From an uncultured virus (IMG/VR IMGVR_UViG_3300005512_000013) (lineage: Duplodnaviria; Heunggongvirae; Uroviricota; Caudoviricetes): DNA of 64,000 nt. The position numbers and the translations under genes are program-made. The stretch is taken from IMG/VR virus record IMGVR_UViG_3300005512_000013. One strand, written 5' to 3'. Below are positions 31,276 through 64,000 of this stretch, in pieces. The notes under the pieces were generated by a model. The model saw nothing but the letters and a program-made list of their open reading frames with translations, was not told the DNA's origin and did no database searches. How positions within the stretch are numbered: the first letter of the stretch is position 1; each line of letters begins with the position of its first letter.

Positions 31276-31359
31276 AATACTCTCCTTAATTAAATTAGCA
31301 TTTGATAAGCTAAGGCTTCCTACATAGTGGGAGACCTTAGATTGTCTATTTTTTGCTAC

Positions 31360-31381
31360 ATACTACTAAGCCATACAACCT
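31360..31381 (-). promoter_or_regulatory. Putative phage RNAP promoter, copy 1 (late module)
   Basis: AGGTTGTATGGCTTAGTAGTAT, identical at 45282-45303 and 59037-59058; all three copies are intergenic. Confidence 0.7.
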
Positions 31382-31389
31382 TCCTGGGG

Positions 31390-32187
31390 TCAAAAACCGG
31401 GGGTCCAGAGGATGGGTTCCCAGTCCTCCGTGACCTCTCCGTCCCTCAGGATCCGGACACAGCGGGCCTGGGATAGGGCATATTCCTCCCCGTGACCCAG
31501 GCTCCAGCCGTACTTATCCTCGAGCAGCTCACTCCGAGTGCCGGAGATCTGCTTGCCCGTGGACTTGGACTTCCACTTGACAGTATCGTACTCAATGTCA
31601 CAGTAGTACTGCAGGATGGCGGCGGACCACTCTTCAGGGGGCCGCTCGTCAAGGAACTTGGTGGCAGCCTTGGCACCACACCGGTGGATACCAGGGATAT
31701 TATCAGCCGAGTCTCCCTTCAGCCACTGCTCACAGAAGTTTCGGTGGGCATCAAGCTGCGAGAACACCACCGGGAAGCCAGTCTTCTCTGGGTCCCAGAA
31801 GAGACCAGGTACAGACTGGAGGTCCTTGTCCTTGGTGACACAGGCAGTACCGTGTCGGGACATGAACACTCCCAGGATATCATCCGCCTCAAGGCGGGGC
31901 TTCTTGATGGTGTCATAGTGTTCCGTGATCCACTCGATGGTGGCACGGAGGTGAGTAGGCGAAGCCTTGGCGTCGCGATGCGCCTTGTAGGCAGGCCAGA
32001 AGTCTCGTCTATAATTGTCATCTCGTCCACACGAGAAGGCGACAATCTGAGGGCCGAGCCCAGGATCCCATAGGCTCAGGTCTTGCGTGAGCCGCTCCTC
32101 CATGTGCTCGATACCATGGTTCTCGAAGTGACACGCTGCCTTGAAGGCAAGCAGATCACCGTCAACAATACTAGCGTAATCAGTCAT
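31390..32187 (-). CDS. 5'-3' exonuclease (gp6-like)
   Basis: IVDGDLLAF, YKAHR, LEADD, KDKDLQSVPG and GDSADNIPG. Confidence 0.92.
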   Translation of the reverse strand: MTDYASIVDGDLLAFKAACHFENHGIEHMEERLTQDLSLWDPGLGPQIVAFSCGRDDNYRRDFWPAYKAHRDAKASPTHLRATIEWITEHYDTIKKPRLEADDILGVFMSRHGTACVTKDKDLQSVPGLFWDPEKTGFPVVFSQLDAHRNFCEQWLKGDSADNIPGIHRCGAKAATKFLDERPPEEWSAAILQYYCDIEYDTVKWKSKSTGKQISGTRSELLEDKYGWSLGHGEEYALSQARCVRILRDGEVTEDWEPILWTPGF

Positions 32188-39308: not shown

Positions 39309-39590
39309 GCCAGGTCCTTCCTGCTAATAACCCATCCCTTAGGGATGACATGAATCTGCCCGCCTGCTTGTCCATCTTCGATGATGGTAGACATGACGGA
39401 CAGGGTGGTGGTAGTCTCGCGAACGAGTACCCCTGCAGTGAGAATCTTAGAGGGCTCCTGTTTAGCAGCCTCATAGAGATCCTCTGCTTCGGTCCAGCTA
39501 GCGTCGCCCTTACAAAAGGCGTCGCCCCAGATGATAGCCACGAAGCGGGGGCTATCATAGTGGCTCTTCAGCCAGGCTTCGGCTTCCTCA
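39305..39590 (-). CDS. Small phage protein with IxWxDA...IPxG pattern (start uncertain)
   Basis: The 3' part of ORF 39305-39793 reads as a real protein (VAIIWGDA..W..GVLVRE..VIPKGW). Confidence 0.5.
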
Positions 39591-42080
39591 ACCGAACAGG
39601 TATTCTGCTCTGAGGACTCCGTTGATGTCGAGGCTTCCGGTGGGTGGGCTAGGCTCGACCTCACACCCGAGCTGCTGCTCAGCATACGCCGTGAGCTGTT
39701 CGAGCTGGTTGACTTGGTGAACTTCAAGGAATGTCTCCTTAATGATCTGACGCATGGCAGGAATCTGTGGGGCAGGACACCCATAGCTGTCATGAATCAT
39801 ACTAAAATTAATTACACCTGCTTTGTGCATACCCAGGATAGCGAGGCGCATGTGCGCCGCATCAAAGGAGTGGATGAAGTTAGGAGCGATGGCTCCCCTG
39901 GCGGAGGGTCCGTCAGGATTCTTAGTGGGCTCACCGAAGGTGACCTGCTGAATGTACTTCTTCCCGTATAGATGCGAGCGACTGACCTTAGGGACAAACT
40001 CTACGTACTTATTTACTACAGTCATACCGCCGGGAACTTCCCAGCGCATATGCCTCCCGCTCTCAGAGTAGAGGTCGGAGATGTAGCGGACGTAGTCCTT
40101 ACCCTTGTTGCTTTCCACCATGGCACCGTCCAATCCGTGGATGGTGAGGAAGGCCAGCTCATTAACAGCTGCGGCCATCTGATCCTTCGGTACCCAGGAG
40201 AGGTGTCCCTCTTCCCTGGCGTACTTACGAATCCCATGCGGTGTGATACCATAGGCGTCGCACATTGTGGCACGCTTAACGACCTTGCGATTCAGCGTGC
40301 CCCAGTAGTCGACGAACTTTTGACACCACTCGTTCCCTTGGTTCTCCGCCCGGTGTACCATCTCAGTGGTAGCGATGTCTGCTACGTACTGGTACAGATC
40401 CTGCGGCTTATCAACGGGGACGACGTTGGTCAGCTCAGCAATGACTGGATCCCTGCGGATCGCAGACCAATGCTGGCTGCCATTGCACGCGCCGTCGAGC
40501 TGGACAGGATACGAAGTCGTTCCCTCGCGCACGGCCTCGGCGTAATCTAGGATTGACGCCAGCCGTTGGAAGCTAGGATTCTTCTTCTTCGTTTCGTTGT
40601 CAGCCCACAGCGAGGCTGTCTCTAGTGGGTTGTCGGCTACATAAAGTAACTGGTCGTGGTTGGCATCAACCCAGGCTACTCGGTCATCGAACGAGACCTT
40701 GTCTGATGCTTCACCTTCCCATCCCTCGGCGCCATCCATGGCGTTGGCTAGGGCCACCTTCTGCCAGTAAAAACCCTCGTCGGTCTGCTGGATAGGGGTG
40801 GCGAACTTCAGGAGACCTCGGTCGAAGTCACCCGCCTGCGGGCTCAGCATAGAACACACTGAGTACGCACGGCCACGGAAGTCCATGGTGTAGGAGTGAT
40901 AGAAGAAGCCGAGAGTGTGGAGTTCCTTGGCGAGGCCAAGGCGTACACTCATCTGCATCCTCTTCTGATCTGACTTATGCCATTCAGACCACATCTCTGC
41001 CCGCTCAGCAATACGTTGCCGGCGGTCATGGAGTTCCTGCTCCGTCTCGTCACCCCTGAGATCGGATACTCGAGGCATAGATACACGATCTAGGTCACGG
41101 GGCGGAAGGTTACAGAACTCCCAGTTATTATTGAACATTGTCTCCATCACATCCAAGACAGGCTTGTTGATGGACCACTCAGTTCTTTGCAGGATATTAA
41201 GCGCGTCGAGATCATGCTGAGTGGGCTTACTTATCCCGTCGATTGTGTCCTTGCGGAGATTCAACTCCAGGGGACCACCAGCCAGCTCGAGCGTGTGCTC
41301 TACTGGCGGGACAATCATTGGACGATAGATCATCTTAAGGAATGCTTCGATAGCATGCAGGTTAACGAGGCGGTCGATGATTGCTTCATCGATGTAGACT
41401 ACAGTCTCTGACTTGTAGGCTCCGCCCTTGTTAGTCCTGATCTGTCTCTGCTCTTTGTGGATGACCTTGGATAGCGTAGCGATATGTAGGATATGATTTC
41501 CTACCTCGGCTACCTCTCTTGGTTTCCAATCAATACCGCCCCCGAACTTCTTAGAGAAGGCGTCGCATCTCTTAGGCTCCCAGTTCTTTAGGAAGTGAGA
41601 CTGCTTCTTCCAGTCTTCGAGGTTGGTGTCCTTAGCTCTGCGGTACTCGCAGATCTTCTTTACTGCTTTGCCTACCTGCTTAGCCAGGCTCTGGTATGAG
41701 TACTTCAGCTTACCTCCACGGTAGTCTGTTGTCTCATCCAGCGTCTCTTTAGACAGGAGCGTCTGAACAATCTCGGAGATGACAATAGCAGCGAGAGTCT
41801 CGGGCTCTAGGATAAAGAGCGGCGAGAACCATTTCTGAACCTTTACTGCATCGTAGTCAGGCATCTGCTTGAAGTAATCTAGCCATGCCGTGTACGGGGC
41901 AGCCGCCTGGTTAACAAACTCCCAGATGAGCTGCTGCTCTGGCGTACCCGACGACGGGTCATCGTCGTAGGATTTCCAGTATTGTTTAATAGAGTAATCT
42001 TCAATTTCCAATTCGAGCAACGTCTGCATCTGCACACGCTTCTTTCGCTCTTCCTCGGAGAGTGAGAAAAATCTTTCCAT
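39588..42080 (-). CDS. T7-like single-subunit RNA polymerase (full length, ~830 aa)
   Basis: PMIVPP, DFRGR, motif A DGACNGSQH, DLY, motif B RKVVKRATMCDAYG, PNFIHSFD, motif C IHDSY; GGAGG RBS. Confidence 0.97.
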   Translation of the reverse strand: MERFFSLSEEERKKRVQMQTLLELEIEDYSIKQYWKSYDDDPSSGTPEQQLIWEFVNQAAAPYTAWLDYFKQMPDYDAVKVQKWFSPLFILEPETLAAIVISEIVQTLLSKETLDETTDYRGGKLKYSYQSLAKQVGKAVKKICEYRRAKDTNLEDWKKQSHFLKNWEPKRCDAFSKKFGGGIDWKPREVAEVGNHILHIATLSKVIHKEQRQIRTNKGGAYKSETVVYIDEAIIDRLVNLHAIEAFLKMIYRPMIVPPVEHTLELAGGPLELNLRKDTIDGISKPTQHDLDALNILQRTEWSINKPVLDVMETMFNNNWEFCNLPPRDLDRVSMPRVSDLRGDETEQELHDRRQRIAERAEMWSEWHKSDQKRMQMSVRLGLAKELHTLGFFYHSYTMDFRGRAYSVCSMLSPQAGDFDRGLLKFATPIQQTDEGFYWQKVALANAMDGAEGWEGEASDKVSFDDRVAWVDANHDQLLYVADNPLETASLWADNETKKKNPSFQRLASILDYAEAVREGTTSYPVQLDGACNGSQHWSAIRRDPVIAELTNVVPVDKPQDLYQYVADIATTEMVHRAENQGNEWCQKFVDYWGTLNRKVVKRATMCDAYGITPHGIRKYAREEGHLSWVPKDQMAAAVNELAFLTIHGLDGAMVESNKGKDYVRYISDLYSESGRHMRWEVPGGMTVVNKYVEFVPKVSRSHLYGKKYIQQVTFGEPTKNPDGPSARGAIAPNFIHSFDAAHMRLAILGMHKAGVINFSMIHDSYGCPAPQIPAMRQIIKETFLEVHQVNQLEQLTAYAEQQLGCEVEPSPPTGSLDINGVLRAEYLFG

Positions 42081-42090
42081 AGAAACCTCC

Positions 42091-42119
42091 AAAATTTTTT
42101 CAACCTATTTTTGAAAATT
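42091..42119. promoter_or_regulatory. AT-rich palindromic site TTTTCAA-N7-TTGAAAA, copy B, abutting the RNAP RBS
   Basis: 25/29 identical to 37877-37905. Confidence 0.5.
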
Positions 42120-45194: not shown

Positions 45195-45281
45195 AATAAA
45201 ACTCCACTTGTAAATTCTAAGCTGTAATACTTAGTTGGTGATATAGATATAGAATGTACTCAAGTTCAACTTAGTATTTGA

Positions 45282-45303
45282 ATACTACTAAGCCATACAA
45301 CCT
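45282..45303 (-). promoter_or_regulatory. Putative phage RNAP promoter, copy 2 (replication module)
   Basis: AGGTTGTATGGCTTAGTAGTAT, a perfect 22-bp repeat. Confidence 0.7.
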
Positions 45304-45325
45304 CAGCGGCCTTATATCGCCGGTT

Positions 45326-45868: not shown

Positions 45869-45906
45869 GGTAGGTGTCCTTAGAGGGCTTCATGATAGTG
45901 AACTGT
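45866..45906 (-). repeat. 41/42-bp direct repeat (motif + RBS + ATG), partner at 50884-50925
   Basis: ACAGTTCACTATCATGAAGCCC(T)TCTAAGGACACCTACYATG; 1 mismatch and 1 indel between copies. Confidence 0.85.
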
Positions 45907-45930
45907 AAAACGTGATAGTGAAACTTCGCT

Positions 45931-46645: not shown

Positions 46646-46647
46646 TA

Positions 46648-50312: not shown

Positions 50313-50314
50313 TA

Positions 50315-50886: not shown

Positions 50887-50924
50887 AGTAGGTGTCCTTA
50901 GAAGGGCTTCATGATAGTGAACTG

Positions 50925-51435: not shown

Positions 51436-51734
51436 GCTGTGGTTACCTTGTCGTTGGACCAGACACGGCGTGAGATGATCCGCGTTCGCGGGTCTTCGTC
51501 GTGCTCGTAGAAATAGTTAACTAGAATGTAATCAAAGGCATCGGGGTTGAATCCGATGAAGTCGACTACGTTTACATGGTTGTAGCTTGGCGGGACACTC
51601 AACGGCGAGCTGTCCACGAGCGCCAATACTGAGTCCTTAGCATCTCCTTGGAGACGCTTTGGGCTCGGGGGTCGGCTGAAAGGCGGCTCGTCTTCTGAGC
51701 TGGCCTTGATAGCCTTCTCTAGCTTATCTGACAT
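51432..51734 (-). CDS. Hypothetical protein (100 aa)
   Basis: Coupled ORF. Confidence 0.5.
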   Translation of the reverse strand: MSDKLEKAIKASSEDEPPFSRPPSPKRLQGDAKDSVLALVDSSPLSVPPSYNHVNVVDFIGFNPDAFDYILVNYFYEHDEDPRTRIISRRVWSNDKVTTA

Positions 51735-51744
51735 ATTTATCCAA

Positions 51745-51918
51745 TCAAATGAAGGGATCGTAGGACCAGTCGGTCGCGAGGACAGCCTTGCGTTCGGCCT
51801 CTTCTCGCTTGCGCTTGGCGTAAGCCTGATACTTGTGAGCTGCCTCGTAGGACTTGGGATCTCCCCAGCCCTGCTTCTTGCAGAGTGCGACCCACTTCTT
51901 GCTGGCCTTGTTGGTCAT
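51745..51918 (-). CDS. Hypothetical basic protein (57 aa)
   Basis: ATGA overlap; starts MTNKASKKW. Confidence 0.5.
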   Translation of the reverse strand: MTNKASKKWVALCKKQGWGDPKSYEAAHKYQAYAKRKREEAERKAVLATDWSYDPFI

Positions 51919-52127
51919 TCGTTGATTCCAGTGGTGAGATCTTCGGACGAATCGACGCACATGGCGTCCCAGTTTTCCAGGATACCGGTATGCTCGGCGA
52001 TGATGCGCTCGAGGATTTCTCGGGGAGTGATCCAGGATTCGCTCATGAGGGAGCGAGAGTGCTGAGCCTGAAAGCCAGCGAGGCTTTCCCGGTAGTATTC
52101 CTTGGTGAGTCCTGCGTAAGTTTCCAT
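51915..52127 (-). CDS. Hypothetical protein (70 aa)
   Basis: AAGGA RBS, TAATG overlap. Confidence 0.55.
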   Translation of the reverse strand: METYAGLTKEYYRESLAGFQAQHSRSLMSESWITPREILERIIAEHTGILENWDAMCVDSSEDLTTGINE

Positions 52128-52279
52128 TAGATAATCCTTGCGTTGTAGAGTCTAGTGATGTGCTCGCGGAATGCGGCACGGGTATAACCATCGGGGAATG
52201 CTTGCGCCACAACGTGCTTGACTCCGAAGAGTACCACGCTGTAGCGCAGGATGGGATCATTGCTGCCGGAGGCGATCAT
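52127..52279 (-). CDS. Hypothetical protein (50 aa, MIASGSND...)
   Basis: Read by hand; overlaps both neighbours. Confidence 0.45.
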   Translation of the reverse strand: MIASGSNDPILRYSVVLFGVKHVVAQAFPDGYTRAAFREHITRLYNARII

Positions 52280-52665
52280 CGCATATGTCCTTTTACCTTT
52301 TTCCAATACGTGATAGTGATGAACTTCTTGTAGCCGTTGGGGCCACCGTTCCAGATGCGGGCTCGATCTTCGTCGGTTACAGTCCGACCGATTCGCCGAG
52401 CCGTGGCGTAGCGAGACATGTATGCACGGAATACGCGCTTGGAGTATTCCAAGTCTGCGCAGTCTTCATACTTGCCGGGGAGGTTGGCGTCTTGCCAGCA
52501 CGCCCGGTGAATCTGTAGTGGACCAAGAGCAGCACCACCATCGCCCAGGATAGGGCCGGTGCGACCAGAAGACTCAACCATATGTATGGCATTGATAAGC
52601 CTGTCATGCTCAGTCCCAGTCGTTGTGGCGAACATCATCGCCGTGATTATCATTAGACATTTCAT
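52276..52665 (-). CDS. Lysozyme-superfamily muramidase (i-type/destabilase-like) with signal-like N-terminus
   Basis: AIHMVESS, GPLQI..W.D, CAD..YMSRY and ARIWNGGP. Confidence 0.75.
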   Translation of the reverse strand: MKCLMIITAMMFATTTGTEHDRLINAIHMVESSGRTGPILGDGGAALGPLQIHRACWQDANLPGKYEDCADLEYSKRVFRAYMSRYATARRIGRTVTDEDRARIWNGGPNGYKKFITITYWKKVKGHMR

Positions 52666-52819
52666 TTTGGATTCCCTCTGTAACAGAGTAGATGTCCTTG
52701 GCAACTCCCTTGACTGTGTTGCATCCGGTGAGGAGCAACAGAGACGTGAGGAGCGTGAGAGCGGTAAGTGCACCAGCGATGGTGACCCAGCGCTCGACTG
52801 TGTTAGTCTTCATAGCCAT
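52610..52819 (-). CDS. Entericidin EcnA/B-like lipoprotein
   Basis: Lipobox LTGC followed by NTVKGVAKDI. Confidence 0.7.
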   Translation of the reverse strand: MAMKTNTVERWVTIAGALTALTLLTSLLLLTGCNTVKGVAKDIYSVTEGIQNEMSNDNHGDDVRHNDWD

Positions 52820-52990
52820 TTCCTTTCGTGATAGTGATTGTGAACTGATCCGGATGCTTTCTCCGGGTGCCGCACCGTGCGACGCTGTCCCTACTCAGTT
52901 TTCTGAGTGGGGAGTTTTCTACTATAATTGTGAAGCACTTCGATTAGGGCAGCCCTGTTCTTCGAAGAGCAGCCCTTTGATCCGACGTGC

Positions 52991-53026
52991 GAAAGCCCTC
53001 CCCCAGGTTTCCCCGAGGGAGGGCTT
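52991..53026 (-). terminator. Terminator-like hairpin after the small RNAP gene
   Basis: Minus strand AAGCCCTCCCTCGGG-GAAA-CCTGGGGGAGGGCTT followed by TC. Confidence 0.55.
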
Positions 53027-53037
53027 AGTGTGTGTGT

Positions 53038-54693
53038 TCAGATGAAGACCTCACCGATCAGGGTGGAGTCCTTCAGGTTGTCGAGCATTGTGTTGTTGTA
53101 ATTGAAGCCCTTCGTGTAGGCTTCCTTGGTTCCCTGATACGGGTTAGGGGTTTCTCGGATGACTGCTGCGTAGCACTGTGCTACGATCTCTCTCAGTCGG
53201 AGCGCGTTAGTGGGCGTGGTGAAGAAGGCATCGTGTACGGTTTTGATAGTGATACCTTCTGCTGCGCACTGGTTGATGACTCGGTGTACAACTGCCGCGT
53301 CAAGTGAGTGGACGAAGTTGGGCATGGTGCCTCCCGCGTCCGCTCCGGTTCTGTTCCGTTCGATGAGCCAGCCGTTAGGGGTGACCCATTCGATCGGGAA
53401 GTAAGCGCTGTCCTCGTCGTTAATGCTTGCGAACCATGCGGCCATTCGGCCCTTGAAGTCCCCAAAGGAGGGAAACTCTGCGTCAAGCTTTCTCTGTGCG
53501 ATTTCAGTGTAGTAGGACAGAGTGTCCCAGTTCCATTCGCCTCTGAGCCACTTGATGGTTGCGTTCTTGTTAGGCACTTCTTCGCCGTTGGAGTTCTCAA
53601 CCATTTCGCCTTCGTTGTCGATCCAAATGTTGAGGGCGATCTGCTCGTGATAACTGCCGTAGAAGGAGAGCATTACTACCGGCTTGGCAGCGTTGCGGAT
53701 CTTCCTCGGGTCAGTGATCCCTACGCTGTTGAGGAGGTTGACGATTGTGCTGTCTTTTACAATAAACGTGTAGAGGTCATGCTTGACGCTATCGGGGAGC
53801 AAGTTGGTGTACTTAGCCATCTTGGTGTCTCCCATGAGCATTGCAACAAACTGTGCCCCTGAGCAGGAGGCGTCTTGCTCCATCATGTACGCGGTTTTGC
53901 CGGTTGTCTTGACTTCCTTGATAGCGAGGGCTGCTCGGTATCGGTTGAGGTCGGAAGGCTCGGTAATCGGCTTGTTGAGGATTTGTCCCCAGTTCTTGTC
54001 GTTGACGCCATACTCGCTTTCTGTGATAGTGAGCATATATCGGTATTCTCGACTACCGTGCTTGATGTCGGTGGCCTCAGGTGCGTCCAGCATTGCTCGG
54101 TTGATCTTGCTTTGCGTGTACGATCCGAAGGTTCCACTCTGGTTGTAAGCCCTGCCGCGCCAGTCGCAGAATGCTTCTGAGTAGATTGGGCCTTCCCATT
54201 CGAGGAGTCCCTTGATAACGGCCCGCTCTTCAGGGGTCCAGGCGTTCATCCTGGTCCGCTGAACCAGTTTTCGCATCTCTTCGTTGAGTACGAGCGGGGT
54301 GTCTGCAAGAGTCTGAAGAGCGTTCTTCATGATGTCGGGCATCTCTTGCGCGTTGTTAGCGGAGTTGGACACTGCGGGTCGGTGGTAGCCCACTCGCAGC
54401 GGTGTCTTAGAGGGTTCGTTGACGATGAGCCCTTCTTCGGTTGCTTCGGCCCAGAGTGCTCCTCCGGTTCCGGGGATGGTTCGGATGAGCCCCTTCTTAG
54501 TGAGGTCTGCGATGTCGTGAATGAGAGCCGCCTTGTCGTTCCCATAGATTGCCAGGACGGTTTCATCGAGGTGAAGCGGGAGGGCCTTGACTTTGGTGGA
54601 GTCCTTGGGCAGGTACTTGTAGGCGTTGGTCTTCTTGAGGACGGTGTACTGGGCAGCGTTGATGTCTTGTCCGTTGACGTTGTAGTAGTTCAT
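53038..54693 (-). CDS. Second, miniature T7-family single-subunit RNA polymerase (551 aa)
   Basis: DWRGR, motif A DASCSGAQ, DLY, motif B RNAAKPVVMLSFYG, WVTPNG, PNFVHSLD, motif C VHDAF. Confidence 0.9.
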   Translation of the reverse strand: MNYYNVNGQDINAAQYTVLKKTNAYKYLPKDSTKVKALPLHLDETVLAIYGNDKAALIHDIADLTKKGLIRTIPGTGGALWAEATEEGLIVNEPSKTPLRVGYHRPAVSNSANNAQEMPDIMKNALQTLADTPLVLNEEMRKLVQRTRMNAWTPEERAVIKGLLEWEGPIYSEAFCDWRGRAYNQSGTFGSYTQSKINRAMLDAPEATDIKHGSREYRYMLTITESEYGVNDKNWGQILNKPITEPSDLNRYRAALAIKEVKTTGKTAYMMEQDASCSGAQFVAMLMGDTKMAKYTNLLPDSVKHDLYTFIVKDSTIVNLLNSVGITDPRKIRNAAKPVVMLSFYGSYHEQIALNIWIDNEGEMVENSNGEEVPNKNATIKWLRGEWNWDTLSYYTEIAQRKLDAEFPSFGDFKGRMAAWFASINDEDSAYFPIEWVTPNGWLIERNRTGADAGGTMPNFVHSLDAAVVHRVINQCAAEGITIKTVHDAFFTTPTNALRLREIVAQCYAAVIRETPNPYQGTKEAYTKGFNYNNTMLDNLKDSTLIGEVFI

Positions 54694-54704
54694 GTGTTCC
54701 TTAT

Positions 54705-54731
54705 CGTGATAGTGAATGTGAACTGTCCCCC
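54705..54731 (-). repeat. Early-region 27-bp motif GGGGGACAGTTCAYAWTCACTATCACG (copy before the mini-RNAP gene)
   Basis: Also at 56946-56972, 57628-57654 and 58037-58063; partial copies at 52827, 55541, 56281, 50911, 45892 and 45911. Confidence 0.9.
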
Positions 54732-54787
54732 GGTAGCGGCCGAGGGCTCCCTGTGTAGAGAGCCCCCGACCGAGCGCTGCCTTCGGA

Positions 54788-55252
54788 TCAGTCCTCCTGC
54801 AGGTTGCGGTTCTTCCGTATTGCTACAGCGAGTTGCTTTGCAGTGAATGTGAAGCCTCTACGTCTGGCTTCTTCGAGCGTTTCTTTGTAGTTGTCGTCCT
54901 TGCCTTGGAGCAGCGTTGCCATGACTGAGGCGTCCGTTGCGTTTTGAGGCTGGTATGCCTTCTTGGGAGCCTTGGGCATGTTTGCCTTGGCTTCAGGCGT
55001 GGGTTCGTACATGTCCACGGTGAAATCAAGGGGGTACTCGGTGAGTTCGGTCTCGTTGAGTACGCTGTTCGCACATGCTTGTCGGACGGGGCAGGCGATC
55101 TTACTCGCGAAGCCCTTTAGGTTGTTGACTGGAAGCGCCGTGTAGTTGTCGAGGATGTCCTTGACGGTGAGTTGATAGTGATACTTGTAGGGCGTGGCGC
55201 TGATGATGGGGAATTGCTTTCCTCCCCAGGTGCAGTGAGTCTTGTTATTCAT
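54788..55252 (-). CDS. Hypothetical protein (154 aa)
   Basis: AAGGGA RBS; immediately upstream of the mini-RNAP gene. Confidence 0.65.
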   Translation of the reverse strand: MNNKTHCTWGGKQFPIISATPYKYHYQLTVKDILDNYTALPVNNLKGFASKIACPVRQACANSVLNETELTEYPLDFTVDMYEPTPEAKANMPKAPKKAYQPQNATDASVMATLLQGKDDNYKETLEEARRRGFTFTAKQLAVAIRKNRNLQED

Positions 55253-55254
55253 GT

Positions 55255-55524
55255 TCAGAGTCCCTTCGGTCGGATGACGCGGTCGGTGACGTGGACGGTG
55301 TTGTCGGGCCCCGGCACGGTGCTGAGGTCCGGCTTGGGTCCTGCCGTCTGGGGCAGGTGCTCTCCGATTGGAGTCCAGATGTAGATGCCGCCTACTCCGG
55401 TCTTGCCTCCGTGTTGGGTGCAGCCTCCGAGTGAGAGTGCAAACAGGAGTGCAAGCCCTGCGAGGATGCCCACTGTGGTGTGGTGGGTCAGGATGTAGAT
55501 GAAGTTGTTGGTGTGTCGATTCAT
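55255..55524 (-). CDS. Putative lipoprotein
   Basis: Hydrophobic stretch ending in an LGGC lipobox; AAGGA RBS. Confidence 0.5.
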   Translation of the reverse strand: MNRHTNNFIYILTHHTTVGILAGLALLFALSLGGCTQHGGKTGVGGIYIWTPIGEHLPQTAGPKPDLSTVPGPDNTVHVTDRVIRPKGL

Positions 55525-55549
55525 GGAGTGATTCCTTGTGTGATAGTGA

Positions 55550-55990
55550 TCAGATGATGCGGAGGTTGAGGTCACCCTGATCCCTGAGGATCCTGATTCC
55601 CTCGGTGAGCAGGCGCTGCCCGTATCCGATCTGCTGAGTGGGCAGATCAGTCAGGACCGCGTTGATTGCCAGCAGCATGCTACTGACGGTTACGTTGGTG
55701 TGCTCGTGCCAGAATGTGGCCCAGTCGGTGACAGCCTGAGCGGCTTCGACTGCATCGCGGGTAGCCTGGTGGGCCCGCTCGTCCTTCCAGCGTCCGTAAC
55801 TGTCGTCGTACTCGTCGTCGCCCTGTTCGGCGTCGGCTCGGCAGCGGTCCATGTACTTTTCGCACTCGTCAGCGTTGTTCTCGAGGAGAGTGGCGACTGC
55901 CATGGTGAAGTGGGACAGGTTGGTGGAGGTGGCGTTCAGAATGCTCACGTTGAGCCCGCTTTGGTCGAGGTAGCAGATGTCCATGGTCAT
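55550..55990 (-). CDS. Hypothetical protein (~146 aa)
   Basis: AAGGGA RBS before MTMDIC. Confidence 0.55.
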   Translation of the reverse strand: MTMDICYLDQSGLNVSILNATSTNLSHFTMAVATLLENNADECEKYMDRCRADAEQGDDEYDDSYGRWKDERAHQATRDAVEAAQAVTDWATFWHEHTNVTVSSMLLAINAVLTDLPTQQIGYGQRLLTEGIRILRDQGDLNLRII

Positions 55991-56003
55991 GATTCGGTTC
56001 CCT

Positions 56004-56264
56004 TCAGGGTGTGGTTGTGATTGCGAAGATTCCTGCCCATCCGATTGCGAATGTGAGGATATCTTGTGGTGTGAGTTTGTCCCCGTTGTCGTGTACCCAT
56101 CCAAGTGCTCTGGCTATGATGCCAATCAGGGCGGGTACACCGAGGAAGCATACGGCGGGCCAGCAGATGCCAAACCAGATTGCTCCTTCTTTGGAGGAGG
56201 TGGTTTGTATAAGTGTGGCCGCTATTGTAACTACAATGAAGAGCATCATAGCGTCCATGGTCAT
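56004..56264 (-). CDS. Small multi-pass membrane protein
   Basis: Three hydrophobic segments; preceded by the motif and an AAGGA RBS. Confidence 0.55.
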   Translation of the reverse strand: MTMDAMMLFIVVTIAATLIQTTSSKEGAIWFGICWPAVCFLGVPALIGIIARALGWVHDNGDKLTPQDILTFAIGWAGIFAITTTP

Positions 56265-56289
56265 GGTTCTATTCCTTGTGTGATAGTGA

Positions 56290-56550
56290 TTAGTCTTCTT
56301 CGACGTGACGAAGGGTGGAGATTTGGAGGTTGGTGAGTTCCTCAAGGTAGCCCTTGAGTTCTTCGATGCGTTCTTCTTCTCGTTCGATGTACTTGACCAG
56401 TTCGTCCTGCGTGATTTCCCAGTTCGCTGAGTACGCTTCGGGGTCGTTGGTGTAGTACTCACTGCAGCAGCCGCAGGAGGCCGTGCTGATGCTGAGGTGT
56501 CCGCGGTGGACGCTTGCTCGGTCGATGGTTTCGTCGGTGAGGTGTCTCAT
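56290..56550 (-). CDS. Hypothetical protein with CGCC motif and coiled coil
   Basis: AAGGGA RBS before MRHLT. Confidence 0.55.
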   Translation of the reverse strand: MRHLTDETIDRASVHRGHLSISTASCGCCSEYYTNDPEAYSANWEITQDELVKYIEREEERIEELKGYLEELTNLQISTLRHVEED

Positions 56551-56560
56551 GCGTTCCCTT

Positions 56561-56815
56561 TCAGGAATTGGGGTTGCTGATGAGGTGGATGATGGTTTGC
56601 ACAATCTTCTCTTCTTGGGAGAAGTCCATGTTTGCCATTTCGTAGTCCTCAATGAGTTCGATGATGGGGCAAGCCCTCTGGCAAGCCTTGAGGATCAGGT
56701 GAGCGGGCAGGTTCGCGTAGTTCTTCTTAGCGCTGCCCCAGAGGTTGTGCAGGAGGTCGTGGGCGGTGCTGCCCGGAACCAGGTGTTCTGCGGTTCGTTC
56801 GATGTATGCGTTCAT
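56561..56815 (-). CDS. Hypothetical protein (84 aa)
   Basis: AAGGA RBS. Confidence 0.55.
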   Translation of the reverse strand: MNAYIERTAEHLVPGSTAHDLLHNLWGSAKKNYANLPAHLILKACQRACPIIELIEDYEMANMDFSQEEKIVQTIIHLISNPNS

Positions 56816-56937: not shown

Positions 56938-56945
56938 GGGGTTCT

Positions 56946-56972
56946 CGTGATAGTGAATATGAACTGTCCCCC
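56946..56972 (-). repeat. Early-region 27-bp motif copy
   Basis: Exact consensus match; GC-rich hairpin immediately upstream. Confidence 0.9.
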
Positions 56973-57006
56973 GGAAGCAGGCGCAGGTGCGCCCGCCGCC
57001 GGTGGC

Positions 57007-57237: not shown

Positions 57238-57627
57238 GGGATCGTTCCCTTGTGTTGGATGTGAGGTATAGTGCCGCGAGGTACAGCACTGCGTACTTGA
57301 TGATGTGTGCTTCGATCATGGGTTCTCTCAGCAGAGTCCGATGAAGAGGAGCAGGGCGTACTTCCAGGTTTGCTTGTTCATCTGTATTGCTCCGTCCAGT
57401 GCTTGCCGTTCGGTTGTGGCTTAGCGGGTGTGTTGAGTGCCTTCAAGACGATCTTGATGACTACGATGAGTGCGATGGTAGCGATTGCTGCGAGCATTGG
57501 TCAGTTCCCTTCGATCAGGCGTGTGACTGCCGCGATGCCGGTCCCGAGTGCGAGGCCAGTGAATACGACAGTGAATACTTGGTAGAGTCTGAATTCGATT
57601 TCTTCTCGCATGGTGTTGTGTCCTCTG

Positions 57628-57654
57628 CGTGATAGTGAATATGAACTGTCCCCC
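57628..57654 (-). repeat. Early-region 27-bp motif copy
   Basis: Identical to the 56946 copy; hairpin upstream. Confidence 0.9.
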
Positions 57655-58014: not shown

Positions 58015-58036
58015 GGGTGATTCCTTTGGATTGAGT

Positions 58037-58063
58037 CGTGATAGTGATTGTGAACTGTCCCCC
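58037..58063 (-). repeat. Early-region 27-bp motif copy
   Basis: Consensus match; hairpin upstream. Confidence 0.9.
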
Positions 58064-58399: not shown

Positions 58400-59230
58400 C
58401 GGAGGGTTCCTGCCCCCCAGCCGCCAATGCAGTTAGCCGAGCTTGCGAGGCTTGCCGCCTTGCCGCCTTGGCTATCGAGTGCAGCTCTGCTATCGTGCAG
58501 CTGCTGCCGCCAATGCAGCCCGCCGAGCTTGCGAGGCCGGTGGCTGAGTGGGCTGCCTCGGCCATCGACTCATTGAGCGAAAGAAGCAGGTAACCACACG
58601 TCTACACCTTAGCCACCAGCAGTACATTAGACGAGAGGCAGCCCGCGAAGGCAGCGATGCAGCGGCGATGTTGGTGGCAAAGGGGCGAAGCCCCGCTTGG
58701 GTGTGTGCGACCGACGAGTCCGCGAGGAGGGAGCTGTGTTGGTGGCCGAGAGGCGAAGCCTCGAGGTTCTTGAAGAGGGGGGTTATGGGGGGAAACTAAA
58801 AAGATTAAAAGAGAAGATAGCCGCCTGTGTATTCCCAGGGGGTAAGTCGATTTCCCCGATCCCGAGTCGAAGGCGCAGCAGCTCCACTGATGTAGCAACT
58901 ACCACTGGTAAGCCACTGATAGACTGCTATGAGCTCTGGGTTGGTAGCTAAGGGGATACTGAGACGGAAGCTAAGCAGTCTAGGTAGCTCCTTAGACACC
59001 AACTATATTATGTATTACTAATATACTTCTTAGTATATACTACTAAGCCATACAACCTTTACGGCATCAAAAACCCACTCTACACTCTTCCCATCCAGCG
59101 CCTGCCAACGTGGCAGTGACACGCAGACGGAAGCTAAGAGGCTTAGGGTGTTATCGTATAAATATTATAATAAGTCCCCCTAAGTCGGGGCGGCCCAGCC
59201 GGCATTGCTGCCAACCAGACCGCCCCCACA
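58400..59230. other. Non-coding genome-end region (probable terminal repeat / entry region)
   Basis: About 0.8 kb with no credible ORF, between the last structural gene and the first early gene; contains direct repeats, hairpins and AT-rich patches. Confidence 0.55.
59037..59058 (-). promoter_or_regulatory. Putative phage RNAP promoter, copy 3 (genome end, phiOR/phiOL-like position)
   Basis: AGGTTGTATGGCTTAGTAGTAT, a perfect 22-bp repeat. Confidence 0.65.
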
Positions 59231-59239: not shown

Positions 59240-62200
59240 TCACTTTCCTAACTTGTCCGCCAGGGAGCCACCTGCGGATCCCGGTCCCATCGCGTTCCCC
59301 TTAGGAGTCGCAATGGTACCTGAGAGGCCGGAGGATCCTCCCTGAGGCGTTCCAGCCCCGCTTACTCCCGGAGATGAGTCTCCAGTCGTCTGCGGAGTTT
59401 TGGGCGATTCAAAGCCCGCTACGTAGTCAGCCTTCAATTTGGCATAGTCCCTAGCTCGGCCCTTGAGACGAGTCTGCTTAGGAGCCGGCCCCCGGTATTC
59501 GGGGACTGCATTGAAGTTCCCCAGGATCTGGAGATTCTTCGGACGATGCGATTGAGGCGTACCACTGGCGTCCTTGAAGTCACCAGTCGCTCCTCGGAGC
59601 CCCGCCACCAGAAGGGGACGGAATTCCGCGGGACCGTACTTGTACAAGAACTCCTTAGCCTGACTCGCAGCCTCAGCGGGGTTGCCCTCAAGGAGAGCGC
59701 TGCCGCCCTGCTTCACCAGATCGGTGAACGCAGTGATGCTCTGGATCATCATAGACGGTCCAGGCATGCCGGGGGTGTTCATACCGAAGGAGCGCTCCTG
59801 GGCCTTAGAGCCAAAGACCGCGCCTCCGCTGAGCTTCCCGACAGAGGAAGTCAGACTATTCATAATCATATCAGTTAGGAACGACCCGGCCCCAAAGACA
59901 GGCATACGAGCAAGAGCGGTGGTCATCTGCCCAGGGGCATCAGTCCGCCAGTCCTCCGCGATCGCCTCCGGGGAGTCGCCGTTCTTCATCCTGTTCAGCG
60001 AGTACCACATGACCTCACCGAAGTAGAGAGGCATGAGCATAGCCGCGGTGGCACCGAGGCCGGTAGCCGCCAGGCCAGCCATGACTTCTCGCATGAACAG
60101 AATAGAATATTGTGATAGCTGCTGCCACATACGGACAACGGGGCTCGTGTTCAAGTTGGTCGTACCAACTCGGGGCTCCATGTTCGTCTTGGCAACTTGG
60201 TTGAAGAGAAGCTGCTGGAGGCCAGTAGCCGCCTTGCCGGACTTGAGAGACTCCTTGCCTCTTCCGAGGCCAGGCTCCCAAGCGACAGCATCAAACATCT
60301 CTTCATACTTCAGGAACGTGTTATCAGGCATATAGTCTTCAGCCAGCTCAGACACCCGCCGAGCCATCTCCGGAGAGAGTAGACCCAGGCCGTGCATCTG
60401 AGTAGCCACGTCAGCCTTCACACCGTTCTCCTTCGCAAGGCGTCGAATCAGCTTGGCGTCAATAGTGCCCTCAGGGTTGGAGGCAATCCAATCGTTGAGA
60501 GCGTCAGCCAGCTTCATGGCCTTAGAGTTTCCGTCGGCGTCCGTGACCAGCATCTTCCGGAGAAGCTGCTGAGCAGGGATCATGGCCGCCTCACGCTGAG
60601 CGAGCTGCACTCGTTCAAACGCGAAGGAGCCCAAACGACGGATCTTCTTGTTAGCCTTGTCGTGGAAGCTTTCCTTGAGCGAGGGGTCCAGGGCCATTGC
60701 AGCCGAGGCCTCGTCGCCCATGTTCCAGATGTGACCGAAGCCAAGCTTCGTCATATGGTAGGGCATGGTGATACCGATGGCGTGCATCGAATCCCGCATG
60801 GCCCCCATGTCACCGGCGTACTTTGGAAGAGTCATCTTCGTTCCGTCGGTGAACATCTTAGCTGCACGATTGACCAAGCCAGCCGTGCCTTCCACAATGA
60901 GGGACGCAGTCGTCCAGTTAGGCGTGGTCGCAAGACCGACCGCCGTCTGAATCGTAGGAGCAACAGCTTCGAGGAAGTCATTGCCCGACTCATCCTTATA
61001 CGAAGGGTTACGGCCCTGGGCAAGCCTGTACTGAGACTCGAGGTTCTCAATCTCCTTGATCGCAGCGCGCTGCTGAGAATCGGAGAGCTTGACCATGGTA
61101 CCGTCCTGCGAGACACGCGCCCGATGGACGCGAGCCTTAAGAGCATTCAGGAGATCGCCATAACCGAAGCCGGTAATGCCGTAGTACTCCTGATTAAAGA
61201 ACTTGTCCGTGACTCCATGATCGAAGGCCATAAAGGTCTTCAATACATTAATAGGAGTACGGTTCAGACCCCGACCAGCAACACCGTCGTTCAAGATACG
61301 TCGGAAGTCACCGCCGCTCATGAAGCGGTTGTTAGCGAAGGAGTAACCACCGTGACGACTGCGATACAACATCTTCATTGCTTCGTAGTCGGCCGGCGAG
61401 GATACTTCCCTACCCGAGGCAAGTACCGCACGGAACTTAGCTCGGTCCTCCGGATCGGGGAAGTCCCGATCAAGGTGGCGCATATAGAAGGGGACATTCT
61501 TACTGTCCGTGAACACAGCGGGGTCAACGCGCCCCTGCATGGCCTGCTTGTAGACATCCCGCAACTGAGTGGGCATATCCTTAGCGTGCCACTGACCGGC
61601 CTCCATTTTCTCTTGGAGAACCTGAGACGCCAGCCAGAACTCGTCAGAACGATCACCGCCATCAAAGCCGATGTCGTACTTGCTTTCATCAATGTTCAGC
61701 TTGCCTTCGTCAATAATAATATCAACGAGATCCGAACCATAGACGGAGTCCAGGGTATCGACATGGCGAGCCCGATCGGTGGGAGACATTGCTGACTTCC
61801 ACGGAGCGAAGATGCCATAGTCGTGCATGAATTGTGCATTCACGAACCCCTGTCGTTCCTCGGGAACGGAGGGATCATATTCAAGTCGTCGAATCTGCTC
61901 TTGGCGGATGCCGTCACCAACCTTGATGGACATCTCGCGCATAGCAGAATCTTCCTTGATGATCTGGCTAAGCTGAATAGGCAGCTGGCGATTCCCGTCA
62001 CCGACGAGACTATCGACCACCCACTTATCCATCTCACCAGTTTGATGCGCGTTCTTATACGCACGGTCGTACAGCTTAGCGAATTCACGCGAAGCAGTCT
62101 CGACCAGGTTGGCGGCATGCGGGTTCACACGCCCCAACTCATCCAGAGCCTCGGTATTATCCGGATGGCCGATGAAGGTTTCTTCAAACGCATCATCAAC

Positions 62201-64000
62201 CATACGAACGAACTCAGGGTCCTGGATCTTCTGAGCCATCTCAAAGAGTTCAATGGACGCCGACATCGGCTTGCCATACAGCGCTCGCTGAAGCGTCTGG
62301 ATCTCCTGCTGCGACATGCCCATACTAAAAGCCTGAGCAGCGGAACGCTCCTCGAAGCCAAGAGTATTGTTGAGCATCTGAGCCGCCCAGTTGATCTCAT
62401 CCGTCATCGAACGCCACGCCGAAGAGGTGCCCTGCAAAGCAATGCCCTCACCGACAAACATAGCCGCACGTCGGAACTTAGAGTCACCCACGGTCTCGCG
62501 ACGACCAGCGATCTTCCCGTCAATCATATGATCAACGATAAGCTTCTTCTCGTCCTCAGTGAAACCGTCTAGGCGAACTCGACCGAACTCTTCGTGAGTA
62601 GCCGGGTCACCATCTGCAATCTTACGGGCAATCTTTGCACGCTCTTCGATCGTGAGACCGGAGTCGCGCATAGCATACCTCGTCTTCTTGCGGGTGCCCT
62701 CACCAAGCAGCGTCCTTTGGACACCAGCGATGGATCGCTCAGAAGGAGTCGCGTGCCCAAGCTCCGCCAAGCGGTTCTTGAGAGACTCAATCTTATTGCG
62801 GATCATCGGTAGATCTTCTTCAGACGCTGTTCGTGATTCGTCCATCGCCTCAGTCAACGCCTTGCGAAGGGCGTCCTCTGTGTTGATGTTCGAAGAGTGA
62901 TTAAACCACATTTCGTTAAATGCCTTACGACCCGACCACAGCACAGGCTCCGCAGTGTTAGCAATGCGGCCCAGGCGCTCAAGGACCGTAGCGGGCTTAA
63001 GCCTGTCGGCTCTAATGCCCTTAGCCTCGATCTTAGGGGTCTCGTAGATCTTTGCGATCTTACGAATACGATCACCGTAACCGGCGCGATACAAAGCAGT
63101 AAACTCTTCACCGAAGTTCTTAGTCACCTCAGTATCGATCGTACGTGAAAGCAAATACCAGGACATCATCTGAGCTGCGAACTCCTGCGACGCAACACCC
63201 TGACGGTGAGAGTCACCGCTCTTGAGGTCGTCGTAGAACTTCTTAAACAACTCATTGCCCTTCTTGTCTCCATGGATAGCAACAAACGCGTCATTGAAAG
63301 TCTTCAAGTCCTCGGGCGTACCCTGAAGGATACGGCGATGGAACTGAGACCTCATCGACGTGAGGGCATGGGACGACGGTCCGCCGCCCTTGGCTCCCTT
63401 ACCAAGTGCCATCCCACGGTGGACGATAGCGTGTCCAATTTCATGAACAACAATATCAAACACCTCCATGGCCTCCATGCCTCTCATATCCTTAAGGATA
63501 GAGACGCGATGAAGCATCTGCTGCGAGCTGTCAATCATAGACCGCATCTTAGCAGTACCAGCTTCGCCGGTGAACTGGAACTTGATCCCAGGGAGGAGAT
63601 CCCCCAGGAGGTCCATGTTCATAGCCATCATCAAACCGAATTCGCGAGCAGCGTCTTCATCCTTAAAGACACCCGCCTTCTTAAACTCATCAATCAGAGT
63701 GTTCAAAGCCGGGTAACGCTTTTCACGAATTACCTTATCAAACTCATTAGCAAGAGTTCGGCCATTGCTAAAGATAGGCCCAGAGTTATCCGGGACACCC
63801 TCAGCAATTAGCTTACCCTCCTGCTCAGTTTCCATATCATCGAGAACTCGACCAGCCGACGCATCGGTAATCAGATCGCGCTCAGGCATGTTAGCCATAA
63901 CGGCTTCCAGCTTAGCTCGGTTAACACCTCGCGTGTTATAGTCCAGCTCGTCTCCCATGATAGCAGCAATGTCCTCTCGGAACGTGCCTTCTACTTCAGA
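59240..64000 (-). CDS. Very large internal virion protein (gp16-like) with a zincin motif; start lies beyond the window
   Basis: Frame open to 64000 (>1586 aa); helical, with hydrophobic C-terminal segments; VHEIGH...QEFAA. Confidence 0.65.
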   Translation of the reverse strand, partial: SEVEGTFREDIAAIMGDELDYNTRGVNRAKLEAVMANMPERDLITDASAGRVLDDMETEQEGKLIAEGVPDNSGPIFSNGRTLANEFDKVIREKRYPALNTLIDEFKKAGVFKDEDAAREFGLMMAMNMDLLGDLLPGIKFQFTGEAGTAKMRSMIDSSQQMLHRVSILKDMRGMEAMEVFDIVVHEIGHAIVHRGMALGKGAKGGGPSSHALTSMRSQFHRRILQGTPEDLKTFNDAFVAIHGDKKGNELFKKFYDDLKSGDSHRQGVASQEFAAQMMSWYLLSRTIDTEVTKNFGEEFTALYRAGYGDRIRKIAKIYETPKIEAKGIRADRLKPATVLERLGRIANTAEPVLWSGRKAFNEMWFNHSSNINTEDALRKALTEAMDESRTASEEDLPMIRNKIESLKNRLAELGHATPSERSIAGVQRTLLGEGTRKKTRYAMRDSGLTIEERAKIARKIADGDPATHEEFGRVRLDGFTEDEKKLIVDHMIDGKIAGRRETVGDSKFRRAAMFVGEGIALQGTSSAWRSMTDEINWAAQMLNNTLGFEERSAAQAFSMGMSQQEIQTLQRALYGKPMSASIELFEMAQKIQDPEFVRMVDDAFEETFIGHPDNTEALDELGRVNPHAANLVETASREFAKLYDRAYKNAHQTGEMDKWVVDSLVGDGNRQLPIQLSQIIKEDSAMREMSIKVGDGIRQEQIRRLEYDPSVPEERQGFVNAQFMHDYGIFAPWKSAMSPTDRARHVDTLDSVYGSDLVDIIIDEGKLNIDESKYDIGFDGGDRSDEFWLASQVLQEKMEAGQWHAKDMPTQLRDVYKQAMQGRVDPAVFTDSKNVPFYMRHLDRDFPDPEDRAKFRAVLASGREVSSPADYEAMKMLYRSRHGGYSFANNRFMSGGDFRRILNDGVAGRGLNRTPINVLKTFMAFDHGVTDKFFNQEYYGITGFGYGDLLNALKARVHRARVSQDGTMVKLSDSQQRAAIKEIENLESQYRLAQGRNPSYKDESGNDFLEAVAPTIQTAVGLATTPNWTTASLIVEGTAGLVNRAAKMFTDGTKMTLPKYAGDMGAMRDSMHAIGITMPYHMTKLGFGHIWNMGDEASAAMALDPSLKESFHDKANKKIRRLGSFAFERVQLAQREAAMIPAQQLLRKMLVTDADGNSKAMKLADALNDWIASNPEGTIDAKLIRRLAKENGVKADVATQMHGLGLLSPEMARRVSELAEDYMPDNTFLKYEEMFDAVAWEPGLGRGKESLKSGKAATGLQQLLFNQVAKTNMEPRVGTTNLNTSPVVRMWQQLSQYSILFMREVMAGLAATGLGATAAMLMPLYFGEVMWYSLNRMKNGDSPEAIAEDWRTDAPGQMTTALARMPVFGAGSFLTDMIMNSLTSSVGKLSGGAVFGSKAQERSFGMNTPGMPGPSMMIQSITAFTDLVKQGGSALLEGNPAEAASQAKEFLYKYGPAEFRPLLVAGLRGATGDFKDASGTPQSHRPKNLQILGNFNAVPEYRGPAPKQTRLKGRARDYAKLKADYVAGFESPKTPQTTGDSSPGVSGAGTPQGGSSGLSGTIATPKGNAMGPGSAGGSLADKLGK

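Follow-up and report, generated by a model that had tools for sequence, protein, structure and literature searches.

Why would a phage that encodes a full-length T7-like RNA polymerase (RNAP) also encode a second, much smaller one without the parts by which T7 RNAP recognizes promoters, and how might such an enzyme start transcription? The question is raised by an uncultured virus of the Caudoviricetes (IMG/VR record IMGVR_UViG_3300005512_000013), of which we analyzed a stretch of 64,000 nucleotides (nt), referred to here as the window. An earlier interpretation made from the DNA letters only (the sequence-only reading) had proposed that this genome encodes two single-subunit RNAPs, and both open reading frames (ORFs) do match PF00940, the Pfam profile for T7-type DNA-dependent RNA polymerase. 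The larger product, of 834 amino acids (aa), matches it at E 2.8e-67 and matches phrog_414 over its whole length; the smaller, of 551 aa and called mini-RNAP here, matches it with 74.5 bits (cut-off 22, E 9.6e-21) and is also matched by the PHROG RNA polymerase families 414, 2051 and 2166. Our best explanation, in which we place slightly less than even confidence, is that mini-RNAP is an active compact single-chain RNAP of the T7 family and most likely an early-made, factor-dependent second-stage transcriptase i.e. a functional counterpart of N4 RNAPII. The positions of the features discussed are collected in Table 1.

The mini-RNAP gene has an AAGGA ribosome-binding site (RBS) a few bases 5' of its ATG, and its product looks catalytically intact when its residues are compared with those of known enzymes. 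The sequence-only reading had held that the 551-aa enzyme keeps DxRGR and motifs A, B and C, with DWRGR at residue 177 corresponding to T7 421, and all of these residues and their numbers map onto T7 RNAP as claimed. In an alignment that contained mini-RNAP, T7 RNAP, N4 gp16 and the two full-length enzymes, D177, R179 and R181 correspond to T7 D421, R423 and R425; by the same type of alignment D274 corresponds to the motif A aspartate D537, R333, K337, Y345 and G346 to R627, K631, Y639 and G640 of motif B, H462 to H784, and H487 and D488 to the HD pair of motif C (H811 and D812). The motif order D/TxxGR, A, B, C is kept, and the motifs are invariant or nearly so across an alignment of 35 sequences whose members are 18-82% identical to the query. 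Eleven positions (R181, R199, D274, S278, G279, K337, Y345, H462, D465, H487 and D488) are the same in 35/35, and the enzyme looks to be under selection.

The sequence-only reading had made a coherent palm and fingers the structural mark of an active enzyme, and this is what structure prediction and superposition returned. An AlphaFold2 model made with the 35-sequence input had a mean predicted local distance difference test score (pLDDT) of 90.1 and a predicted template modeling score (pTM) of 0.89, with no segment below 50. Foldseek matched the model to T7 and mitochondrial RNAPs at E values of about 1e-17 (best 1.6e-17). VIA-align superposed it on the T7 elongation complexes 8dh1_L (Z 34.3, 425 residues aligned, root-mean-square deviation (rmsd) 4.7, model 84-546 on T7 261-882) and 1s77_D (Z 32.5, 430 aligned, rmsd 3.3), on the N4 mini-vRNAP (2po4; Z 21.0) and, over model residues 214-547, on residues 4-404 of the large subunit of N4 RNAPII (6dt7_B; Z 19.7, 286 aligned, 21% identity). 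Because of these matches to T7 RNAP, N4 mini-vRNAP and N4 RNAPII, the predicted fold is a coherent one of palm, fingers and a short thumb. Overall, mini-RNAP ~84-547 superposes on T7 RNAP 261-883, and in the superposition ~85 N-terminal residues replace the 266-residue N-terminal region of T7 RNAP. These residues were modeled as a small beta-beta-alpha-alpha-alpha-beta-beta domain, and several of the structural alignments start at model residues 11-27, facing T7 197-198, where the ranges give the first and last aligned residue only.

What is missing is equally specific. The specificity loop had been described as deleted (22 vs 53 aa), and most of the N-terminal domain and much of the thumb as gone; the alignment agrees on each count. 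In mini-RNAP there is no counterpart for T7 residues 7-130, 143-157 and 165-207 of the N-terminal domain (we take the AT-rich recognition loop of the T7 N-terminal promoter-binding domain to be 93-101), for 342-383 and 395-403 (about half of the thumb), for 593-622 and 840-862, or for 739-769, which is exactly the beta-hairpin of the specificity loop. The span from W436 to P458 measures 22 aa, and in the same alignment the hairpin at this place is 31 aa longer in T7 RNAP and in the phage's own 834-aa RNAP. Compared with self-sufficient enzymes, mini-RNAP lacks most of the N-terminal promoter-binding domain of the T7 model, its structural match beginning at about T7 261, and the specificity loop of the Autographiviridae type, and it would be unable to bind and melt a duplex promoter in the manner of T7 RNAP.

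Mini-RNAP could be a redundant or decaying paralogue, or an inactive pseudo-enzyme, and it is very divergent, the best BLASTP segment against the phage's own full-length RNAP reaching at most 28% identity over 68 aa. However, the relatives that share 82%, 70% and 45-47% identity with it are all intact, with full lengths of 551-573 aa, the catalytic residues are invariant, the fold is predicted confidently, and an identical copy of mini-RNAP is present on an independent metagenome contig (L004). We therefore rejected decay, which had also been named as a possible refutation by the sequence-only reading, and regard this explanation as highly improbable. A word-indexed search gave 14 close relatives (358-573 aa, 32-100% identity, E<=3e-40), the other 20 matches being ordinary RNAPs (E>=2.9e-8), and a profile search of 1.84 billion representatives gave 6488 matches at E<=0.001 and 33 clusters at E<=1e-30. 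Judged by the close relatives, the 33 clusters and the invariant catalytic residues, mini-RNAP is not a chance ORF. Among 50,697 cultured-phage records no close relative was found: 14 records matched, none covering 80% of the query, and the matches spanning 41-68% of mini-RNAP were 23-26% identical. The search of IMG/VR for relatives yielded one locus only, at 23% identity, and the GTDB genomes scanned contained no close relative.

The loop deletion recurs throughout the nearest of these relatives. The span from the W to the PN is 18-29 aa in 20/20 members of the core family to which mini-RNAP belongs and 33 aa in one outlier, whereas it is 44-64 aa in 14/14 sister enzymes; loop deletion is thus, in the aligned sequences, the defining trait of the core family (475-606 aa, uncultured), the shortest members of which have 475-489 aa. 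The N-terminal domain is the least conserved part, and is reduced to ~45 residues in the 475-489-aa subclade. A tree calculated with FastTree from a quick alignment (68 rows, 472 columns; unrooted, and to be read with a warning about long branches) contained three groups: five Schitoviridae RNAP2 with 2 representatives (7 rows, support 100), full-length T7-like enzymes (25 rows, support 80), and compact single-chain enzymes including mini-RNAP (35 rows, support 100), the last splitting into the core family (17 rows, support 97) and a sister set of 572-654 aa. By this tree mini-RNAP belongs to a distinct clade of compact single-chain RNAPs. Two proposals of the sequence-only reading are thereby modified. 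Its view of the mode of action stands as far as the intact catalytic set and the missing T7-type promoter elements are concerned, but not as a one-off loss from T7 RNAP; its comparison with N4 RNAPII stands by alignment, but the enzyme does not group with Schitoviridae RNAP2.

The genome is ~74.4 kb long and either circularly assembled or terminally redundant (contig P0001 has 74,500 bases, and overlap with the IMG/VR fragment G001 gives ~74,358). All genes lie on the minus strand, so that transcription runs down-coordinate. Along that direction come a non-coding stretch (59.2-58.4 kb); ~12 kb of small ORFs without family matches, plus ThyX, a block that includes the mini-RNAP gene at 4.5-6.2 kb from the presumed left end; genes for dUTPase, a class II ribonucleotide reductase and the full-length RNAP; a T7 gp4-type primase-helicase and a family A DNA polymerase; a T7-type portal and nozzle; and finally a 1199-aa and a 4668-aa protein. 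The nearly identical IMG/VR record G001 (62.3 kb, linear) is without exactly the 12-kb early block 45928-57975. One of its ends is 6 nt and the other 62 nt away from a copy of the class A motif described below, which points either to an assembly interrupted at the repeats or to strains that differ in their early region.

Possession of both enzymes is not peculiar to this phage. A search for others, as proposed in the sequence-only reading, found the pairing in a distant relative, the 38-kb contig L008, which encodes a 489-aa mini-RNAP (~30% identical) and, 7 kb downstream on the same strand, an 813-aa full-length RNAP. Between the two genes lie ThyX and the same weakly citrate-synthase-like ORF as in the window; the gene directly upstream of mini-RNAP showed no detectable conservation between the window and L008 (E 0.27). 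Because the full-length RNAPs of both phages are sisters in the tree (support 99) and both mini-RNAPs fall in the core family, the pairing is, on these relationships, an inherited one, and its recurrence in L008 makes a division of labor between the two enzymes plausible.

The early block carries a short motif that could be read by one of them. The 10-nt class A core TCACTATCAC occurs 16 times with at most one mismatch (3.55 expected; largest shuffle count 8), and every one of them is found on the coding strand, within the interval 45.9-58.05 kb. Of the 16, ten or eleven fall between genes, just ahead of an RBS and at 7-30 nt from the ATG that follows. Five copies are extended upstream as CAGTTCAYAWTCACTATCACGA, with 16 further conserved bases (the leading GGGGGA in four of the five), and each of these long copies is preceded by a GC-rich stem-loop placed after the previous stop codon (z-scores -1.4, -6.2, -2.1, -4.4 and -2.1; in two of the five, 0/200 shuffles fold as well). 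Relatives carry the 8-mer TCACTATC on the coding strand of their early regions: L005 (2.5 kb) and L007 (2.3 kb) have four copies each, and it is also present in L006, L008 and L010. In L005 and L007 a copy immediately precedes the mini-RNAP gene, and in L008 one stands at the head of the mini-RNAP operon. Sequence upstream of the core is not conserved between phages, only the 8-10-nt core itself. Two class A cores, one exact and one with 1 mismatch, also lie inside the mini-RNAP coding sequence (54023-54032 and 53243-53252, minus strand) and may be chance occurrences or internal starts.

A simple scan of 44.5-59.4 kb for sigma-70-like promoters gave 8 sites where 8.0 were expected and 0 on the coding strand, using a consensus that may differ from that of the host. 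A sigma-70-driven early region was therefore not supported, within the limits of that consensus.

One way to account for the class A cores is that mini-RNAP is self-sufficient and reads the 10-nt core on duplex DNA factor-free, possibly by means of its small N-terminal domain, thereby amplifying its own expression. In its favor, the core is shared by phages with as little as 30-35% identity between their mini-RNAPs, no conserved upstream part accompanies the short cores at 56.28, 55.54 and 52.31 kb, and the N-terminal residues are predicted to form a domain and, in several superpositions, are aligned from near their start with T7 RNAP. However, this domain is the part that varies most and shrinks in the smallest enzymes, and we know of no loop-less T7-family enzyme that recognizes duplex promoters unaided. 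We consider factor-free recognition quite unlikely.

A second motif, class B, has a different distribution. Its core AGGTTGTATGGCTTAGTAGTAT occurs three times in the window, with 22 nt identical, and its three copies are probably promoters of another polymerase. T7 RNAP promoters sit at the left end and before the class II and class III genes, and the layout of the class B motifs is similar. In the non-coding left-end region (58950-59190, minus strand) there are also two copies of a ~30-nt repeat with the core CTTAGCTTCCGTCT, each after an AT-rich stretch; the predicted structures were no more stable than those of shuffles.

In the scheme that we favor, the first transcripts would come from an injected polymerase within the 4668-aa virion protein or from a host enzyme, and mini-RNAP would be made early. 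It would then initiate at short core sites, either assisted by a small factor of phage or host origin or on DNA that is opened transiently; the best candidate for such a site is the 10-nt class A core, by which the block of small early genes at 46-58 kb is marked. Transcription continuing beyond this block would reach the gene of the full-length RNAP. The replication and structural modules would then pass to this enzyme, which would probably start at the three class B motifs.

Several observations weigh against this scheme. The mini-RNAP gene itself lies behind a class A motif, and if mini-RNAP reads class A motifs its first copy must therefore be made in some other way. The step involving an injected polymerase draws on one motif, described below. 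The clade of N4 RNAPII is separate from that of mini-RNAP (support 100 each). Pfam and PHROG scans of 23 early ORFs revealed no named cofactor, with N4 gp1, N4 gp2 and LUZ7 Drc not directly compared. Finally, TCACTAT in the class A core equals positions -8 to -2 of the T7 promoter as printed in PMC13029058, and such a T7-like core, together with the 16 conserved upstream bases of the five long copies, is expected of a promoter for a loop-bearing enzyme.

It is because of this last point that we keep, as the chief rival, the explanation that the full-length RNAP uses the class A motifs as ordinary promoters of the T7 type and that mini-RNAP is one of its products, with a specialized task that involves no promoter, for example the formation of primers or R-loops at an origin or the transcription of single-stranded DNA (ssDNA) or replicating DNA. 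T7 RNAP and mitochondrial RNAP both prime replication. The 16 upstream bases would fit a specificity loop and upstream element, found only in the 834-aa enzyme, and a class A copy directly precedes the mini-RNAP gene, as this explanation would have it. On the other hand, the gene of the full-length RNAP lies downstream of all class A sites and behind class B, so that the block entering the cell first would have to wait for a gene that enters later; relatives conserve the class A core but not its upstream part; and the phage has its own T7 gp4-type primase-helicase, so that a priming polymerase is not obviously needed. On balance we judge this explanation unlikely.

If mini-RNAP instead depends on a factor, as we favor, one early gene offers a lead. 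The 84-aa early protein belongs to a family of 74-91 aa (PG..HD..N..NY) with invariant P14, G15, H19, D20, N24, N32 and Y33, and a member is encoded upstream of the mini-RNAP gene in 4/4 phages with upstream sequence (the window, L005:261-536, L007:771-1022 and L008:532-756). The family has 11 database clusters, all unnamed, and matches no known family. The 84-aa protein is a candidate cofactor of mini-RNAP, as a lead only.

Lying within ~6 kb of the presumed entry end, the mini-RNAP gene is also suitably placed for a mainly mechanical role of its product, in which mini-RNAP, by transcribing, would draw the remaining genome into the cell, as has been reported for the N4 transcription systems and T7; according to PMC4496689, which cites unpublished data, injection of the N4 genome is complete only after the middle transcription machinery has been made. 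No sequence feature bears on such a role, which we think improbable as the main function, although it is compatible with, and not exclusive of, factor-dependent transcription.

The motif behind the idea of an injected polymerase is found in the 4668-aa protein at the end of the virion module. This protein is one of nine homologous giants (4554-4811 aa, all cysteine-free), and their most conserved block, LMKRPVMTRxYGAG, resembles the T7 motif B sequence KRSVMTLAYG. The match to PF00940 was weak (10.8 bits, E 0.003 within one 62-kb record), and hhalign aligned motif B only, with the T7-like profile at E 0.0015 and a probability of 17% and with the mini-family profile at a probability of 0.28% (1.6% for a sub-region). 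Nothing was found by hhalign against N4 gp50 or by hmmscan of the giant protein against Pfam and PHROGs, phmmer of residues 1500-2700 against PDB sequences gave nothing relevant, and the ESM Atlas contained no usable match. The AlphaFold2 model of residues 1400-2480 (9 sequences) was poor (pLDDT 52.8); a wide VIA search with it gave a best Z of 6.1 and no RNAP, and Foldseek gave no match at E<=0.001, with four N4 mini-vRNAP entries in the top 17 at E 0.2-0.9. The protein may be an injected RNAP or an ejection protein, and we consider the former possible, with about even odds. Because it carries the motif-B-like block, the relay may, on this weak support, comprise three polymerases rather than two. 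In its fullest form the relay would be host-independent and run through three T7-family enzymes: an injected one in the 4668-aa cysteine-free ejection protein; the mini-RNAP class (475-606 aa, the smallest natural single-subunit RNAPs) acting on the 10-nt class A core with or without the ~80-aa early protein; and the full-length RNAP for the replication and virion genes. We regard this complete version as tentative and rather unlikely.

Table 1. Positions of the polymerase genes, candidate promoters and associated features in the window
Feature	Position	Strand	Description
Mini-RNAP gene	53038..54693	minus	551 aa, ATG start, single chain, T7-family catalytic core, without specificity loop
Full-length T7-like RNAP gene	39588..42092	minus	834 aa, specificity loop of normal length
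4668-aa protein	59240..64000	minus	C-terminal 1586 codons; whole gene L011:1265-15271 (minus), last of virion module
84-aa early protein	56561..56815	minus	Conserved family, upstream of mini-RNAP gene
Long class A motif GGGGGACAGTTCACATTCACTATCACGA	54704..54731	minus	Ends 10 nt before mini-RNAP ATG, then AAGGA RBS
GC-rich stem-loop	54738..54771	minus	Between stop codon of upstream gene and class A motif; -32.2 kcal/mol, z -4.4, 0/200 shuffles
Long class A copy	58036..58063	minus	Hairpin ahead
Long class A copy	57627..57654	minus	Hairpin ahead (z -6.2)
Long class A copy	56945..56972	minus	Hairpin ahead
Class A copy	52826..52850	minus	Just downstream of mini-RNAP gene
Short class A core TCACTATCAC	56280..56289	minus	Immediately after stop codon, ahead of RBS and ATG
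Short class A core TCACTATCAC	55540..55549	minus	Immediately after stop codon, ahead of RBS and ATG
Short class A core	52310..52319	minus	End of lysozyme-like ORF, upstream of next ATG
Class A variant ACAGTTCACTATCATGAAGCCCT..AAGGACACCTAC.ATG	50911..50920	minus	
Two adjacent class A cores	45892..45921	minus	Last before replication module
Class B motif	59024..59075	minus	Non-coding left-end region; forms 7-bp hairpin (z -3.7)
Class B motif	45269..45320	minus	Upstream of dUTPase, ribonucleotide reductase, full-length RNAP block and replication genes
Class B motif	31347..31398	minus	Upstream of portal and structural genes

Three further observations concern other genes of the window. A destabilase-type lysozyme domain (PF05497, 31.5 bits; 52276-52773, minus strand) is encoded in the early block, just downstream of mini-RNAP, and not in the late region. 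A 103-aa early ORF (49115-49426, minus strand) has below-cut-off matches to DUF3574 (24.1 bits) and to an S-adenosylmethionine lyase family (17.9 bits) and may encode a T3-type anti-restriction S-adenosylmethionine lyase. A 9-nt periodic repeat (17126-17339) inside the ORF 16596-18014 (472 aa), presumed to encode a tail or fiber protein, resembles a collagen-like Gly-X-Y tract.

Minimal factor-dependent enzymes of the T7 family are already known (N4 RNAPII), as are compact single-chain versions from metagenomes (the sister clade). As far as we found, the new elements appear to be the loop-less 475-606-aa subfamily, the stable co-occurrence of this subfamily with a full-length RNAP in phages whose virion and replication genes are of the T7 type, and the associated conserved 10-nt motif; in the literature we found no T7-type phage described as having a compact RNAP in addition to a full-length one. 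The mini-RNAP family is smaller than N4 RNAPII, and in it the specificity loop has been removed completely while the catalytic core stays under strong selection. It is therefore possible to test what minimal machinery a single-subunit RNAP needs for promoter-dependent initiation, and how helpers or DNA structure take the place of recognition elements, an issue that arises equally for N4 RNAPII and mitochondrial RNAPs. By encoding a loop-less enzyme alongside a full-length one, and by carrying candidate cognate motifs for each, the genome provides a natural paired experiment; it would also take the multi-polymerase relay beyond Schitoviridae, to phages whose virion and replication modules are T7-type. 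If the three-polymerase relay is real, the strategies of N4 and T7 are combined in one genome. An RNAP of 475-551 aa with a 10-nt promoter would, moreover, be of use as a compact orthogonal expression tool.

Among known systems, the nearest relatives of mini-RNAP are the compact single-chain RNAPs of 572-654 aa from uncultured sources, which share its short N-terminus and catalytic set but, unlike the core family, retain the specificity-loop span. T7 RNAP (883 aa) and other Autographiviridae RNAPs share the fold and catalytic residues (Z 29-34 over ~430 residues); T7 RNAP has a FAFA-type C-terminus, whereas mini-RNAP has no clear one, and T7 and other Autographiviridae have a single RNAP, whereas mini-RNAP is encoded beside a full-length enzyme. 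Mitochondrial RNAPs (POLRMT, Rpo41) were the best PDB matches at the sequence level, in the region of PNFVHSxD and motif C (E 2.4e-7), and superposed with Z 25-32, but they are eukaryotic, about twice the size of mini-RNAP and have large N-terminal extensions. Their promoter melting is listed as factor-dependent in Table 1 of PMC4496689; no TFB2M- or Mtf1-like gene was seen in the window.

The closest functional parallel is N4 RNAPII of the Schitoviridae (PDB 6DT7), and the comparison made in the sequence-only reading proved apt. N4 RNAPII is a heterodimer of gp15 (RNAP1, 269 aa) and gp16 (RNAP2, 404 aa) from two genes, 673 aa in total, whereas mini-RNAP is one chain, 122 aa shorter, and its relatives are also single ORFs. 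Mini-RNAP is colinear with gp15 followed by gp16: its residues 120-206 align with gp15 158-264 (E 8e-4), and residues 232-357 with gp16 33-165 (31% over 141 aa, E 6e-9), better than with the phage's own large RNAP. The genes also lie at matching distances from the genome start, presumed in the case of the mini-RNAP phage: those of N4 RNAP1 and RNAP2 are found at 4.6-6.7 kb, counted from the left end of N4, and in both phages the neighbors are small early ORFs. The two enzymes differ in that gp16 has a 70-aa insert (residues 257-326) absent from mini-RNAP and, in our alignment, keeps a long specificity-loop hairpin that mini-RNAP has lost; the hairpin of gp16 is also reported in PMC7145618, which cites Molodtsov and Murakami (2018). 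The mini-RNAP phage, unlike N4, has its own full-length RNAP and a T7-type portal, nozzle, DNA polymerase and primase-helicase. The gp16 loop is described in PMC7145618 as present but acidic and rigid. PMC4496689 places N4 RNAPII among the smallest members of the family, describes its N-terminal domain and thumb as truncated, as they are in mini-RNAP, and characterizes it as an enzyme that binds ssDNA only, needs gp2 and probably gp1, and uses a promoter from -7 to +2. The dependence on helpers documented there for N4 RNAPII would be expected for mini-RNAP too, which on the evidence available would work like N4 RNAPII, yet stands outside the N4 RNAPII family.

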